DNA of 64,000 bases from the NCBI GenBank assembly GCA_919901855.1, contig CAKKQC010000010.1:43214-107213 (forward strand). Direction: 5' to 3'. The position numbers were made by a program, and so were the translations under genes. This DNA is from a bacterium (GTDB lineage Bacteria > Oederibacteriota > CAKKQC01). Positions 5,222-63,959 of this stretch are shown in pieces; the stretch's first letter is position 1, and each line of letters begins with the position of its first letter. The notes under the pieces are model-generated. The model was not told the DNA's origin. It saw only the letters and a list, made by a program, of their open reading frames with translations, and searched no databases.

Positions 5222-6135
5222 TCACCGTGGCGCTTCTGATCGGGGGAATGCTGGCCGGGGGAGCTAACGGCCGGGCGGCGACGCCGGGCGAGGTCACGGT
5301 CTTCGAAGCGGCGGCCGTGCGGGGCAACGCCCTGCTCGCGCCGATGGACGCCCGCCGTACCGGCCTCGGCGAGGCGTTCGTGGCGGCCGGCGATGACGGA
5401 TCGGCGGCGGGCAATCCGGCCGGCCTGGGTCAGGTGACGCGGCCCGGTGTCTTCGGGAGCTACCACAGGGCGGGAAGCGCCTACAACGCCACTCACGCCG
5501 GCGTGGCGGTGCCGCTCGGTCCGGGGACCCTCGCGGCGGGTTTCTCGTACTTCGATCTCGGCCGGCCGGACTTGCGGGACGCCGATGGGTGGGGTCTCTC
5601 GCCCCAGTCGTTCTACGACTACGCGCTCTTCCTTGGCTGGGGCATGGCCAATCCGGGCTGGACCGGGATTCCCGGCTGGATGGGCGTCTCCGTGGAGGCC
5701 GTGCAGGAAGGTGTGGGAGGAGCAGCGGAGGCGGTCACTTTCGGGGAAGTGGTGCCGCTGGGCGACAAGCTCAAGGCGGGCGTGATGGTGGAACATCTTG
5801 GCGTCAAGCTGGATGGATACGCGCTGCCTTCCGCCGGAAGGATCGGGGCCGTATACCAAGTGGCTCCCACGCTCGATGGGGCCGTGGACGTGCGCTACGG
5901 GTTCACGGATCGTCAGACCGATTTGGCAGTGGGGTTCGAGGCCTTCCGTGACCGGGCGCTTCAGCTTCGCGCCGGCTACCGTGTGCAGTCGCCCTCCCTC
6001 GGTGCGGGCTCCATGGCGGGACTCTCATTCGGAGTGGGCGCGCGCTGGAAGGGGTTTCATCTCGACTACGCGTTCCAGTCCTACGGTGACATCGGGAGCG
6101 GCCAGTTCGTGACCCTCGGTTGGGGAGGCCGGTAG
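5218..6135 (+). CDS. Putative secreted/outer-membrane protein, possibly T9SS-associated
   Basis: ATG overlaps upstream stop (ATGA); N-terminal signal-like MITVALLIGGMLAGGANG; G/Y/F-rich beta-strand-like composition; function unknown. Confidence 0.4.
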   Translation: MITVALLIGGMLAGGANGRAATPGEVTVFEAAAVRGNALLAPMDARRTGLGEAFVAAGDDGSAAGNPAGLGQVTRPGVFGSYHRAGSAYNATHAGVAVPLGPGTLAAGFSYFDLGRPDLRDADGWGLSPQSFYDYALFLGWGMANPGWTGIPGWMGVSVEAVQEGVGGAAEAVTFGEVVPLGDKLKAGVMVEHLGVKLDGYALPSAGRIGAVYQVAPTLDGAVDVRYGFTDRQTDLAVGFEAFRDRALQLRAGYRVQSPSLGAGSMAGLSFGVGARWKGFHLDYAFQSYGDIGSGQFVTLGWGGR

Positions 6136-12151: not shown

Positions 12152-12966
12152 TGGCGACGATCCTGCTCCGGGCGGCCTTCGCCGGCTACCTGGGCGGGAC
12201 GCTCGCGTTCCTGGGGTACCTGGCGACGAGGCGGCACGGGCTGGCGAAGATCGGGCTGGGCCTCTCGGTGGCGGCCCTGGCGGTGCACACGGCCTCCTAC
12301 GGCACGGACTGCGCCGTGTACCGGGCGATGGTGATCGTGACCCCGCGCGGCATGTGCTCGCTGCTCGCGTTCGTGACGGCGGCGCTGACTCTCGCGATCG
12401 CCGCGCGCCACCGGCTCCTGATCCTGGGCGCGTTCATCATGCCCATCGTCGCGATCCTCGCCGGCGTCGCGGTCGCGGCTCCCGAGCCCGGGACCCCGGC
12501 GGTCGTCCTCCAGGGCCCGCTCTTTCCACTGCACGTCTGGACCACCTACCTCGGGTTCGCGGGGTTCACGGTCGCGTTCGGCGTGGCCGTGGCGTGGCTC
12601 GTGCAGGAGCGCGAGATCCGGTCGCGCCATCCCAAGCCGCTCGCGTTCGTGCTCCCGCCGTTGGACACGATCGAGCGGCTGAGCCTGTCGCTCGTGAACC
12701 ATGCGCTCCTGCTGACGGGGGCGGGCATCGTGACGGGCGTCCTGTACCTCAAGCAGACCGACGGCGTGTGGTGGGCGTGGGAGCCGAAGGCGACGGCGAC
12801 CGTTGCCTGCTGGGGAATCTACGCGGCGGTACCCGTGCTTCGCCGGACGGCGGGCTGGCGGGGCCGCCGGCTGGCGCTCCTCCTCGTCGCCGGGTTCGTA
12901 TTCGTCGTCTTCATCTTTGGTGGCCTCAGCCACCTGCCCGGGCCGCTCAAGCCGGGTCCGCGCTAG
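12151..12966 (+). CDS. Cytochrome c assembly family membrane protein (HemX-like, CcsA family)
   Basis: Polytopic membrane protein with WAWEPKATAT region; TGATG overlap with upstream gene; position immediately upstream of hemA as in hemAXCDB operons. Confidence 0.6.
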   Translation: MATILLRAAFAGYLGGTLAFLGYLATRRHGLAKIGLGLSVAALAVHTASYGTDCAVYRAMVIVTPRGMCSLLAFVTAALTLAIAARHRLLILGAFIMPIVAILAGVAVAAPEPGTPAVVLQGPLFPLHVWTTYLGFAGFTVAFGVAVAWLVQEREIRSRHPKPLAFVLPPLDTIERLSLSLVNHALLLTGAGIVTGVLYLKQTDGVWWAWEPKATATVACWGIYAAVPVLRRTAGWRGRRLALLLVAGFVFVVFIFGGLSHLPGPLKPGPR

Positions 12967-61203: not shown

Positions 61204-61215
61204 TTGGACCTCCCT

Positions 61216-61300
61216 GGGGACGTACGTGAAATTGTGAAATTCTCCGTCGAGCTTACGATACCAGCCCTTCGGAGAATTTCACAATTTCACGTACGTCCCC
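61216..61300. repeat. Perfect 31-bp inverted repeat with 23-nt spacer
   Basis: GGGGACGTACGTGAAATTGTGAAATTCTCCG at 61216-61246; exact reverse complement at 61270-61300; each arm contains GAAATTgtGAAATT; right arm overlaps the last codons and stop of the MFS gene. Confidence 0.9.
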
Positions 61301-62600
61301 TGGCGTGCTCGCGGAGGTCCATGGCGACCTGGAGGGCGAGGGCGGTGGAGAAGAAGGCGAGCATCATGACGAACGGGGCCCGGGGGTTGTGGACGTACAG
61401 GGCACCCGCGATAGCGGGCGCGGGCGCCGTCATGACCATGAAAAGGACGTTGGCGAGGGCCGTGATCCGGGGCCGCTCGTCGTCCCGCATCTGGTTCGCC
61501 CAGTAGGTGTTGGCCGTGGACCACAGGATGCCGAAGCCGAGGCCCTCGGCCACCATGGCGCCCATGACGATCCAGAGCGCGCCGGCGGGGGCCAGGACGA
61601 TCGCGAGCAGGTAGGTCATCCGTAAGCCCAGCCCGAGGTAGAAGAACCGGTGGATGCGCGCGAGCCGGATCATGGGATTGATGAAGACTAGGGCCGCGAC
61701 CACCATCGCGCTGTTGATGAGCGGCAGGACCGAGATCCGGGCCTTGTCGAGCGCGAGCCCCCGGGGGTCGGTGAGGTAGAGATAGCCGTAGGTGAACCCG
61801 ACGACGATGGCCATCCGCATCAGGAGCTGGTAGAAGAACATGAGCCGCAGGACCGGGCGGGCCAGGATCGTGCGGAACGCGTGGCCGTGGCCGTGCAGGA
61901 GGCCGCGGAGTCCCGCCCGGCGCACCCGCCGCGCGGCGTGGCCTGGTGTCCGGTCCTTGACGGTCCGCCACCGGATCGCGATCCCGGTGATCATGAGGGC
62001 CGCGCCGAAGACGAAGATGCCCCGGACCGTGTTCGAGACGCCCCAGGCGCGGACCAGGGGGGCGCCAAGCGGGACCAGCAGGCCGCCGCCCATGAAGTTC
62101 AGGCCGCCGAGGGCGAACAGGAACGGCCGGCGCGCGCGCGGCGTGCCCGAGAGGAGGAGCGAGATCCAGGCCGGGACCACGACCCACTGGAAGCCCTCGA
62201 CGCAGGCGCCCGCGAGGAAGCCCGTGTAGCTGGTGGCGGTCGCGTAACAGATCATGGCCGTCGGCCAGAGGCACAGGTCGAGGAAGACGAGCGCGCGCTT
62301 CCAGCCGATCCGGTCCGCGATCCAGCCGCCGCAGAACGAGCCCGCGATCTGGAACAGGACCTGGGTGGAGCTGATCGTCCCGATCTCGATCTCGGAGAGC
62401 CCCTGCTCCCGCATGAAGATGCGCAGGTACACGACGGAGAACGCGGTCGGCAGGGTCCAGAAGAAGGACGTGAGCGCCAGGATCTGGGCGTTGCGCGAGA
62501 GCCCGCGGAACTGGGTGCCGATGCCCCGGAGGCGGTCGGCGACGTGCCCGGGGACCCGGACGGTGGCCCAGGAGACCAGATCGAGCAGGGGGGAGAACAA
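61287..62600 (-). CDS. MFS transporter (sugar transporter-like)
   Basis: 12 hydrophobic helices; MFS-like loops; last codons (...RGRT-stop) lie inside the inverted repeat. Confidence 0.75.
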   Translation of the reverse strand: MFSPLLDLVSWATVRVPGHVADRLRGIGTQFRGLSRNAQILALTSFFWTLPTAFSVVYLRIFMREQGLSEIEIGTISSTQVLFQIAGSFCGGWIADRIGWKRALVFLDLCLWPTAMICYATATSYTGFLAGACVEGFQWVVVPAWISLLLSGTPRARRPFLFALGGLNFMGGGLLVPLGAPLVRAWGVSNTVRGIFVFGAALMITGIAIRWRTVKDRTPGHAARRVRRAGLRGLLHGHGHAFRTILARPVLRLMFFYQLLMRMAIVVGFTYGYLYLTDPRGLALDKARISVLPLINSAMVVAALVFINPMIRLARIHRFFYLGLGLRMTYLLAIVLAPAGALWIVMGAMVAEGLGFGILWSTANTYWANQMRDDERPRITALANVLFMVMTAPAPAIAGALYVHNPRAPFVMMLAFFSTALALQVAMDLREHARGRT

Positions 62601-62612
62601 GGGCGGGGGGCC

Positions 62613-63959
62613 CTAGTCCCGGACCGGGGGCGGGGGGAAGGGGTCGCCCGTCTTCACGAGCCAGTCGCGCAGCAGTCCCCGGTGCCGGTCCAGTTCGGGT
62701 CGGGTACCGGGTTCCCCGGCAAGGTTACGGGTCTCGCCCGGATCGGCGGCTAGGTCGAAGAGGGTCTCGCGGACCGCGCCGCGCGAGAAAGCCGAGTAGG
62801 CCCAGCGGGTGGTCCGAACGGCGCGGCCCGCGATGTCGGAGTCACCGGATACCGGGTAGAGGGCGCAGAAGGCGGATTCGGGGCCGGAGGCCGAGGGATC
62901 AGCGATCACGGGAGCCAGGTCCGTCCCGTGGAGGCCGGGCGGGGGCATAACTCCGGCCAGCCCGCAGAGCGTCGGGAAGAGGTCCAGCCCCGAGGCGGGT
63001 CTCTGGCGTTCGACCCGGCCCCCGGTGACTCCGGGCCGGGTCACGATGAAGGGCACCGAGATCGCGTCCTCATAGAGCGAGAGCTTGCCGATCCACCGGT
63101 GGGCGGGGGTGCCCTCGCCGTGGTCGCTCGTGTAGACGACGGGGGTTACCGCTTCGAGGCCGGCAGCGCGCAGGCCGTCCAGCACGACCCCCACGGCGGC
63201 GTCGGCCTGCCCGACGAACCGGTGGTAGAGCGCGGCGCTAGCCTGCCAAGCCAGGTCGTCCCACCCCTTGGCGAGCGTGGCCGACCACTCGTGCGTGAAC
63301 CGGGTCTCACGGTGAAGATCGGCCTCCCCGTCCGGCGGCTCCACGTTCGGCGGCAGGGGGGCGAGCTCGGCGTCGGCCACCGGGCCGGCCCGGTCGTACG
63401 CGGTCGGAAAGCAGATATCGTGCGGATTCATGAGCGATACCACGAGCAGGAACGGCCGGTCGTGCGGCCGGCGGAGGAAGGCGGCGGCGGCTTCGGCCAC
63501 GGGGACGTCGGCGTATCCGCCGAGGTTGTGCTCCCATGCGCCGGGCCGCCCCGCGACCCGCACGGGATACCCGTTCCGGTCGGTCTCGCGCCCCCGCAGG
63601 GGTAGGTTGTCGAACCCGGGGATCGCGTCCCGCTCCAGCGGGTACTCCTCGGGCACGTGCCACTTGCCCGCCCAGACCGTCTCGTACCCGGCGGCGCGGA
63701 AGACTCCGCCGAGGGTCGGGAGGCCGGGGTCGAGCTTCTGGTGGTTCGTGGTCACCCCCGAGGCGAGCGGAGTCCGCCCCGTCACCCAGGCCGCGCGCGA
63801 GGGGGAGCAGAGGGGGGAGGCGCAGTACGACCGGGCGAACCTGACGCCCCGGGCGGCGAGCGCGTCGAGGTGCGGGGTGCGGACGAACGCATCGCCGTCG
63901 GCCCCCAGGGCGCCGTTGCGGTGCTGGTCGGTCAGGATGACCAGGAGATTCGGCGGCAT
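62613..63959 (-). CDS. Sulfatase (formylglycine-dependent, Cys-type), no obvious signal peptide
   Basis: PNLLVILTDQHR; CSPSR FGly motif; GKWH block; C-terminal sulfatase domain. Confidence 0.85.
   Translation of the reverse strand: MPPNLLVILTDQHRNGALGADGDAFVRTPHLDALAARGVRFARSYCASPLCSPSRAAWVTGRTPLASGVTTNHQKLDPGLPTLGGVFRAAGYETVWAGKWHVPEEYPLERDAIPGFDNLPLRGRETDRNGYPVRVAGRPGAWEHNLGGYADVPVAEAAAAFLRRPHDRPFLLVVSLMNPHDICFPTAYDRAGPVADAELAPLPPNVEPPDGEADLHRETRFTHEWSATLAKGWDDLAWQASAALYHRFVGQADAAVGVVLDGLRAAGLEAVTPVVYTSDHGEGTPAHRWIGKLSLYEDAISVPFIVTRPGVTGGRVERQRPASGLDLFPTLCGLAGVMPPPGLHGTDLAPVIADPSASGPESAFCALYPVSGDSDIAGRAVRTTRWAYSAFSRGAVRETLFDLAADPGETRNLAGEPGTRPELDRHRGLLRDWLVKTGDPFPPPPVRD

Follow-up and report, generated by a model that had tools for sequence, protein, structure and literature searches.

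Near one end of the stretch of bacterial DNA analysed here (64,000 nucleotides of contig CAKKQC010000010.1, hereafter the window), a gene for an MFS transporter and a gene for a GH130 protein meet at an 85-bp inverted repeat with perfect 31-bp arms. The arrangement raises the question of whether the repeat belongs to the control of these genes or arrived from elsewhere. A preliminary description had offered an operator for a regulator of glycan-utilisation genes, an mRNA structure and a small palindromic mobile repeat as options. We conclude that the repeat is very probably a non-autonomous 'TIR dimer', a pair of terminal inverted repeats (TIRs) from an insertion sequence (IS)-like family of the TIRYT type, the transposases of which combine a RAYT-like HUH/Y1 domain with a helix–turn–helix (HTH) resembling domain IV of DnaA. 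The window copy retains the two ends and the 23 nt between them, and it contains no gene; we take it for selfish DNA of an ordinary sort.

A perfect palindrome supported by two independent assemblies

Reading of the sequence and a repeat finder both bear out the anatomy first described: the two arms, of sequence GGGGACGTACGTGAAATTGTGAAATTCTCCG, are exact reverse complements of 31 nt each around a 23-nt spacer (positions throughout are those of the whole 64-kb window). The palindrome extends imperfectly, at 90%, to 41 nt per arm (61213–61253 and 61263–61303), and the arm itself has no self-complementarity except ACGTACGT. Within the 64 kb, the 16-mer GTGAAATTGTGAAATT is found at the two arm sites alone, even with three mismatches allowed (0 expected), and the four GAAATT hexamers of the window all lie inside the element. 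GC content is 25% in the 16-mer core and 48% in the full arm, in a window of 65–76%. By our arithmetic, chance would produce a perfect 31-nt inverted repeat within 100 nt ~1e-12 times per 64 kb, far too rarely to account for this one.

The source is a metagenome assembly and the arm length is about that of a k-mer (31 nt), both of which could point to a collapsed or fold-back palindrome, the artefact that the preliminary description had named as its refutation. The identical repeat is present in the European Nucleotide Archive (ENA) contig ERZ1292638 NODE_12, which includes the window and belongs to a metagenome-assembled genome (MAG) labelled Candidatus Coatesbacteria at NCBI; there it lies in the middle of 222 kb and is flanked on both sides by unique coding sequence. 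The independent Logan assembly of run ERR3858135 has the two genes on separate contigs, each of which breaks off 30 nt into an arm, the MFS contig at its end and the GH130 contig at its start. Because 30 nt is k−1 for k=31, where a de Bruijn graph stops at a true inverted repeat, these contig ends confirm both junctions, and the junction of the right arm with the MFS gene is confirmed in Logan contig L194 (L numbers are our handles for contigs and loci). The arm is, in addition, a member of a family found in at least 119 unrelated contigs. The palindrome is not an assembly artefact, an origin that we regard as extremely improbable.

The arms as ends of a Y1-transposase family

An 18-mer from the arm core gave 17 single matches in 185,579 species genomes, a collection that does not contain the source MAG; chance estimates made before the scan were ~17–27, and most of these matches are probably due to chance. 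The sole useful one, which led to the family, came from a Syntrophobacterales MAG (L067) and matches the arm at 26 of 27 bases, including the tip GGGGACGT. It is the left end of a 352-bp element with imperfect inverted repeats that lies between two acyl-CoA genes. A degenerate pattern built from the three arms then known (GGGGACGTNCNTGAAATNNTGANATTC, with 22 specified bases of the first 27 arm bases) was found in at least 119 metagenome contigs of 34–68% GC, where ~0.2 chance matches are expected if the collection is assumed to hold roughly 2 Tbp. Many of the matches lie at contig ends, as is the case for multi-copy elements.

Several of these contigs contain a complete unit bounded by a pair of TIRs. 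The 27-nt TIR consensus is GGGGACGTCCGTGAAATATTGACATTC (written out, GGGGACGTyCrTGAAATATTGACATTC), and an inverted copy stands at each unit end with GGGG outward, the second copy being found when mismatches were allowed. The unit measures 1085 bp in L077, L083, L126, L139 and L170, 1086 bp in L124 and 1127 bp in L081. Three further loci (L189, L190 and L192), fetched through protein homologues rather than the DNA pattern, share the TIRs, the 53-nt offset and the 1085-bp length. Each unit holds a single open reading frame (ORF) of 335–338 aa with the N-terminus MPR(K/Q)ARIDAPGALHH..., the ATG of which lies 53 nt after the TIR start, that is, at position 54, at 10 of 10 loci. The left TIR includes a TTGACA −35 box at positions 19–24, followed in most loci by a −10-like hexamer 17 nt on; given an ATG at position 54, the transposase mRNA may be leaderless. 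At position 21 the right TIR mostly has A rather than G, the complement of which provides the TAA stop of the transposase ORF. One base difference between the ends separates 'promoter' from 'stop codon' in an extremely compact element.

The encoded protein matches Pfam Y1_Tnp (8e-10, IS200-like) and Bac_DnaA_C (9e-9), in a domain test done on family members from the other contigs. Its best NCBIfam model is the REP-associated tyrosine transposase (REP_Tyr_transpos), at 66 bits below the 80-bit cut-off, and a PDB sequence search with the TIRYT protein gave no match. Homologues make up at least 7,995 database clusters at E<1e-20, many of them on ~1.1-kb contigs, and their source names are 'REP element-mobilizing transposase RayT' or putative transposase. 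RAYT-like genes that have long TIRs in place of REP (repetitive extragenic palindromic) sequences were described as TIRYT, and the elements as TIRtrons, by Di Nocera, De Gregorio & Rocco (2013; PMC3733652), who reported a GGGGWSAS tip motif, fixed distances between TIR and gene and 'TIR repeats' that occur singly, as dimers or in groups. Proteins with a Bac_DnaA_C tail form subclass 2.1.2 of the TnpA-Y1 (HUH) proteins in the survey of Quentin et al. (2018; PMC6006769), which found the distribution of this subclass to be patchy, in the manner of horizontal gene transfer, and treated subclass 2.1, TIRYT and Bertels' RAYT Group 1 as equivalent. In the analysis of Bertels et al. (2017; PMC5581495), Group 1 was the most widely distributed RAYT group and among the most IS-like.

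Each window arm agrees with the 27-nt family consensus at 23 of 27 positions. To avoid circularity, we limited an nhmmer profile to the seven gene-distal ends, none of which the pattern had selected; it finds the right arm at E=1.7e-4 and the left arm at E=2.3e-4, with no other match in the 64 kb below E = 4. The emphasis that the preliminary description placed on a tandem GAAATT core proves misleading: the family consensus there reads GAAATATTGACATTC, and the tandem appearance is confined to one sub-variant. One of the TIR sub-variants is TGTGAAATTC.

Gene-less derivatives of 70, 81, 82, 98, 111, 122–123, 139–140, 352, 517 and 585 bp are present in other contigs, and their architecture is that of the window element. 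The 123-bp form recurs, interior included, at three or more different loci, an indication that it was moved as a unit. A second doublet of the window's sub-variant, 82 bp long, is found in L084, one base past the stop of an EamA-type gene and upstream of clpC. Its 27-nt arm cores are identical to those of the window and its 31-nt arms are perfect, although arm positions 28–31 and the loop differ. L084 and the window's assembly belong to one ENA accession series (ERZ1292640 and ERZ1292638, respectively), and the tetranucleotide signature of L084 correlates with that of the window at r=0.88 (0.85–0.92 for an internal control within the window; at most 0.65 for the other loci). From these signatures we infer that it belongs to the same or a very close genome. 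Perfect arms are confined to the window and L084: in 21 other elements, the ends agree at 20–26 of 27 positions. The idea of a small palindromic mobile repeat, one of the preliminary options, is thus the one that held, with arms that are TIRs of a widespread Y1-transposase family and a second doublet at an unrelated locus.

Other arrangements of TIRs were seen among these contigs. In L125 (3003–5748), four miniature elements (three of 139–140 bp and one 517-bp pair) lie within 3 kb; L173 (1989–3406) has two 123-bp copies 1.3 kb apart; and L121 (952–1036) and L166 (1123–1442) contain direct tandem TIR units. Among 15 short elements, we found no consistent preference for insertion at stop codons.

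The GGGG outer ends resemble those of Tn3-type TIRs, and TA or AT frequently stands just outside GGGG (11 of 23 family copies). Both features would fit a miniature of a DDE-transposase family, either a Tn3-derived inverted-repeat miniature element (TIME) or an IS630/mariner-type miniature inverted-repeat transposable element (MITE) with a TA duplication. A Y1/HUH protein is, however, the only gene between the TIRs in 10 of 10 autonomous units. TA and AT are self-complementary and may simply extend the inverted repeat, and the flanks of other copies (TT..AA, AG..CT or AA..TT) are complementary rather than direct. No 5-bp duplication is present, and the inner TAAG of Tn3 ends is not in the family TIR. 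We give a DDE parent next to no credence. Copies of one sub-family share a few further flanking bases, so the true ends may lie slightly outside GGGG. A Tn3-type end, an integron attC site and LacI or CRP half-sites (AATTGTGA / TGTGA) were also tried as identities of the arm and rejected, as their spacing, partner genes or duplications do not fit.

Taken as a TIRYT derivative, the window repeat would have arms that are the sequences bound and cut by the transposase, as judged from the family, and the doublet would have been made or moved by a TIRYT-type enzyme supplied in trans. In single-stranded DNA its complementary ends probably function as a hairpin, in the manner of REPINs (hairpin-forming REP doublets) and IS200/IS605 elements.

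Several points weigh against this interpretation. No TIRYT element has been seen to transpose experimentally (PMC6006769, PMC3733652). Neither the window nor its 6-kb extension contains a TIRYT gene or TIRYT-like coding sequence, and these 64 kb and 6 kb hold one copy of the element, which with L084 makes two known copies of the sub-variant. The tip GGGGACGT agrees with the published GGGGWSAS at 6 of 8 positions only; TIRs that deviate from that motif are reported (PMC3733652). The window copy has no target-site duplication (its flanks are CT and TG), and no empty site was found. Because exact deletion of 61216–61300 would fuse MFS to GH130 in frame without a stop, the pre-insertion junction cannot be reconstructed. 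Finally, the window arms are identical, unlike the ends of autonomous elements, which differ at 1–5 of their first 27 positions; the window copy is therefore not accounted for by a simple internal deletion, and the identity suggests homogenisation or inverted duplication of one end.

The viral collection yielded 43 matches to a 16-mer of the arm, all on contigs of 23–49% GC. In no case does the similarity to the window arm continue into the flanks, and the matches look unrelated to it; the family pattern had no match in that collection. In the plasmid collection there was no DNA match to the family, and at the protein level distant Y1 proteins alone (<40% identity), annotated 'transposase'. 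One phage-like, unrelated viral contig (L029, IMGVR_UViG_3300031994_000304) has at least six GTGAAATT boxes in both orientations within one intergenic region (12600–12890), which look iteron- or operator-like, and L039 has a tandem (GTGAAATT)n array right before an ORF (5677–5724); the flanks of neither resemble the TIR family. A reading of GTGAAATT as a DnaA box was rejected, with 5 of 9 positions of TGTGGATAA matched; TIRYT TIRs are not DnaA-box-like (PMC6006769). A Verrucomicrobiota MAG (L066, 7730–7760) shares 27 identical nt with the inner portion of the left end of L067 (CGTGAAATTGTGAAATTCGTCTATATA). The GGGGACGT tip is missing from this stretch, which falls within an ORF of 442 aa that has weak TraG/VirD4-like matches. 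The stretch may represent a piece of TIR that a coding sequence has taken up, or one wrongly called as coding.

The element between the MFS and GH130 genes

Coordinates of the features at the locus, and of the autonomous elements with which the window copy is compared, are collected in Table 1. The MFS frame ends ...GCC AGG GGA CGT ACG TGA. As first described, the MFS stop lies in the right arm, which supplies the last three and two-thirds codons, (R)GRT, rather than the last four. The left arm was likewise placed correctly, just upstream of the GH130 ribosome-binding site, at a distance from the ATG of 12 nt (61204–61215, containing AGGGAGG) instead of the 13 given before. The C-terminus of the MFS transporter is thus partly transposon-derived, which is relevant to annotation of the locus. 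The sulfatase–MFS–GH130 gene order is confirmed in L001/L193, and just past the window's right end the string is headed by a 255-aa ORF (L001 2470–3237) that has no Pfam match. At the other end, a GH3 gene on the plus strand (end 60264) converges on GH130 (end 60277) with a gap of 12 nt.

Table 1. Positions of the miniature element, its parts and the neighbouring genes in the window, and of autonomous elements in their own contigs
Feature	Position	Strand	Remarks
Miniature element, 85 bp	61216..61300	no strand	Two inverted TIR copies, outward-facing GGGG ends, 23-nt spacer
Left arm (TIR copy)	61216..61246	+	3' arm of the hairpin in minus-strand mRNA; abuts the GH130 Shine–Dalgarno sequence
Spacer (hairpin loop), 23 nt	61247..61269	no strand	Partly self-complementary
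Right arm (TIR copy)	61270..61300	-	5' arm of the hairpin in mRNA
MFS stop codon TGA	61287..61289	-	TIR positions 12-14
GH130 Shine–Dalgarno sequence AGGGAGG	61209..61215	-	Directly adjoins the element; pairs with 61314-61321 in the predicted fold
GGACCTCC in MFS coding sequence	61314..61321	-	Complementary to GGAGGTCC (61206-61213); outside the element
GH130, 308 aa	60277..61203	-	Pfam Glyco_hydro_130 7e-59; downstream of the element
MFS transporter, 437 aa	61287..62600	-	Pfam MFS_1 4e-28; 3' end runs into the element
Sulfatase	62613..63959	-	Pfam Sulfatase 2.8e-46; upstream, same gene string
Autonomous elements	L077 938-2022; L083 4314-5398; L139 4157-5241; L170 976-2060; L189 9948-11032; L192 9948-11032		

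Folding of the minus-strand RNA, the check that the preliminary description had proposed, gives a hairpin of -93.2 kcal/mol (z = -13.7; 0 of 200 shuffles match) that touches both the stop codon and the Shine–Dalgarno (SD) sequence; the DNA strand folds at -50.2 kcal/mol (z = -12.9). The operon mRNA is thus predicted to contain a hairpin of 31 perfect pairs, with ~-93 kcal/mol including its extensions. In the predicted fold, GGACCTCC and GGAGGTCC form an 8-bp outer stem that prolongs the hairpin over the GH130 SD; as both halves are external to the element, this anti-SD pairing is possible even without it. A site scan found no terminator-like or promoter-like site at its threshold and no U-tract at the element, in line with the earlier view that it is not a canonical terminator: the sequence after the stem is AGGGAGGUCC, and the GC-rich stem plus U-tract of an intrinsic terminator is not present. 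No Rfam family reached its gathering threshold; the sole match, to mir-3167, is spurious (32.6 bits against a threshold of 86).

On the minus strand, the spacer has CTGGTATCGT at approximately the offset at which CTGGTAGGAT and CTGGTAGTAG occur in the −10-like region of the left ends (LE) of L139 and L126, respectively. The similarity of the spacer to the LE interior is weak (13 of 25), and the resemblance is only suggestive. At this level of similarity, an origin of the spacer in the LE promoter region of the autonomous elements was rejected.

An effect of the hairpin on the GH130/MFS mRNA is plausible from the modelled fold and would most simply be a by-product of insertion. If it acts as REP elements do, the hairpin could delay ribosomes at the MFS stop, it could shield upstream mRNA from 3' exonucleases or attract RNase III, and GH130 initiation could depend on ribosomes opening the stem. 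Compatible with a mobile origin, but in our judgement unlikely, is that the doublet has been exapted as an intercistronic RNA element, its hairpin kept for control of operon expression through coupling of GH130 translation to that of MFS, stabilisation of the sulfatase–MFS message, an RNase III site or an internal GH130 promoter. The predicted fold is suggestive here, with the MFS stop in the 5' arm and the SD paired in an outer stem that is not part of the element. Both copies of the sub-variant, moreover, keep perfect 31-nt arms despite their differences at positions 28–31 and in the loop, and both lie at or just past the stop of a transporter gene and before a co-directional gene; two copies are, however, too few for selection to be inferred, and family members are scattered over many unrelated contexts and stand in no consistent relation to stop codons. 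A minus-strand TTGTGA-18 nt-TATCGT resembles the family LE promoter, although the promoter scan reported nothing at its threshold. A hairpin that ends in ACGTCCGCAAGGAG at the same distance to the ATG is also present at the closest GH130 homologue (L003, 83% identity), but the TIR profile does not recognise it, and GH130 loci at ~65% identity have no such hairpin.

A stronger form of exaptation holds that the doublet has been kept as a perfect palindrome at two unrelated loci because it works as an intercistronic switch, which we consider more doubtful still. In such a switch, the 5' arm would hide the MFS stop and the base of the stem would hold the GH130 SD closed, so that GH130 would be produced only once ribosomes have completed MFS, or else from a promoter that the element itself carries and that starts inside the 3' arm. 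If true, this would be a REPIN-like partnership between host and element in an uncultured candidate-phylum bacterium and in the poorly studied TIRYT (RAYT Group 1) clade.

The closest GH130 loci (L003–L005, 83% identity) and six more at ~63–66% identity have different neighbours and no such repeat, and because their gene contexts differ, orthologous loci cannot serve to judge its conservation. The L003 hairpin (413–443; also in L004 and L005; 61% GC) has a 13-bp stem formed by CGGACGTTGAACG and CGTTAAACGTCCG, and its 3' tip and SD/ATG distance mirror those of the window (ACGTCCCCAGGGAGG). This hairpin may be what remains of the same doublet after decay, or the likeness may be coincidental. Three GH130 loci on unrelated contigs carry CTAAAACCTTTTAG at ~25–65 nt upstream of the start (L195 ~2955–2975, L006 ~5915–5935 and L198 ~345–365), where it is probably a true operator in these lineages; L006 also contains a gene with periplasmic-binding (LacI-type sugar-binding) domains. 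In the window, CTAAAACCTTTTAG has no match even with three mismatches.

These comparisons bear on the preliminary suggestion of an operator for a dimeric transcription factor of the glycan-utilisation genes. A perfect dyad within a carbohydrate gene cluster, with AT-rich arms that contain TGTGA/TCACA, makes that suggestion attractive. Its half-sites would, however, stand ~54 bp apart from centre to centre, between two genes of one string rather than at a promoter, and no promoter-like site is found there. There is no further copy in 64 kb rich in glycoside-hydrolase genes, the second copy lies between EamA and clpC, the same motif bounds transposase genes and occurs in unrelated contexts in many phyla, and the palindrome conserved at more distant GH130 loci, CTAAAACCTTTTAG, is a different one. 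We regard an operator as highly unlikely. The repeat is uninformative on how a regulator controls the sulfatase–MFS–GH130 genes, and a tempting regulatory reading of the locus is thereby removed.

The probable TIR dimer among known mobile repeats

Our analysis provides an anatomical description of a very abundant and barely characterised IS-like family that spawns miniature derivatives across phyla. It should be of use for repeat masking, for explaining contig breaks in metagenomes from sediment and groundwater and for choosing substrates for the first TIRYT biochemistry. The window element is REPIN- and MITE-like, yet it fails the defining features of both, having neither GTAG-tagged REP units nor a target duplication.

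The closest counterparts are the TIRtrons. As in these, a RAYT-like Y1 protein with a C-terminal Bac_DnaA_C-type HTH is encoded between long TIRs that start with GGGG, lie at fixed distances from the gene and overlap its 3' end; TIRs distant from a gene are single, dimeric or grouped, and the window element is a dimer. The family differs in its tip, GGGGACGT rather than the published GGGGWSAS. Its clade, with a 1085-bp unit, a nearly invariant 27-nt TIR and 34–68% GC, comes from uncultured sediment and groundwater bacteria and is not among the 26 published TIRtron examples in those parts of the source that were available to us (PMC3733652).

Like REPINs (Bertels & Rainey 2011, PMC3116915), the window element consists of two inverted copies of a transposase-recognition sequence around a short spacer that form a long hairpin, and it is gene-less and intergenic, as they are. 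For both, a related Y1 enzyme is presumed to act in trans. Unlike the REPINs of RAYT Groups 2 and 3, it is without a GTAG tag, and its arm is not a REP-type palindrome (20–40 nt, GTAG/CGTC). Two copies were found here, a density of 1 per 64 kb in the window, as against tens to hundreds of REPINs per genome, and the Group 1 transposase clade is more IS-like than the single-copy RAYTs of Groups 2 and 3 (PMC5581495). With IS200/IS605 elements (IS608, ISDra2), the family shares the HUH/Y1 domain (Pfam Y1_Tnp) and, probably, single-stranded hairpin substrates. Those elements have no TIRs and use subterminal hairpins and a tetra- or pentanucleotide target, whereas the family described here has 27-nt TIRs and an extra HTH.

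Classical MITEs are, like the window element, short gene-less pairs of ends that lie between genes and can supply coding or regulatory sequence to their neighbours. They have a DDE parent and target-site duplications, in contrast to the tyrosine HUH parent and absent duplication observed here. In E. coli operons, REP elements act as mRNA stabilisers or translation modulators, as in malE–malF or with a REP close to a stop codon. The window element likewise places a stable intercistronic hairpin, derived from a repeated element, at a stop codon; its effect is a predicted one, and its stem is much longer, with 31 perfect pairs that contain the stop codon itself.

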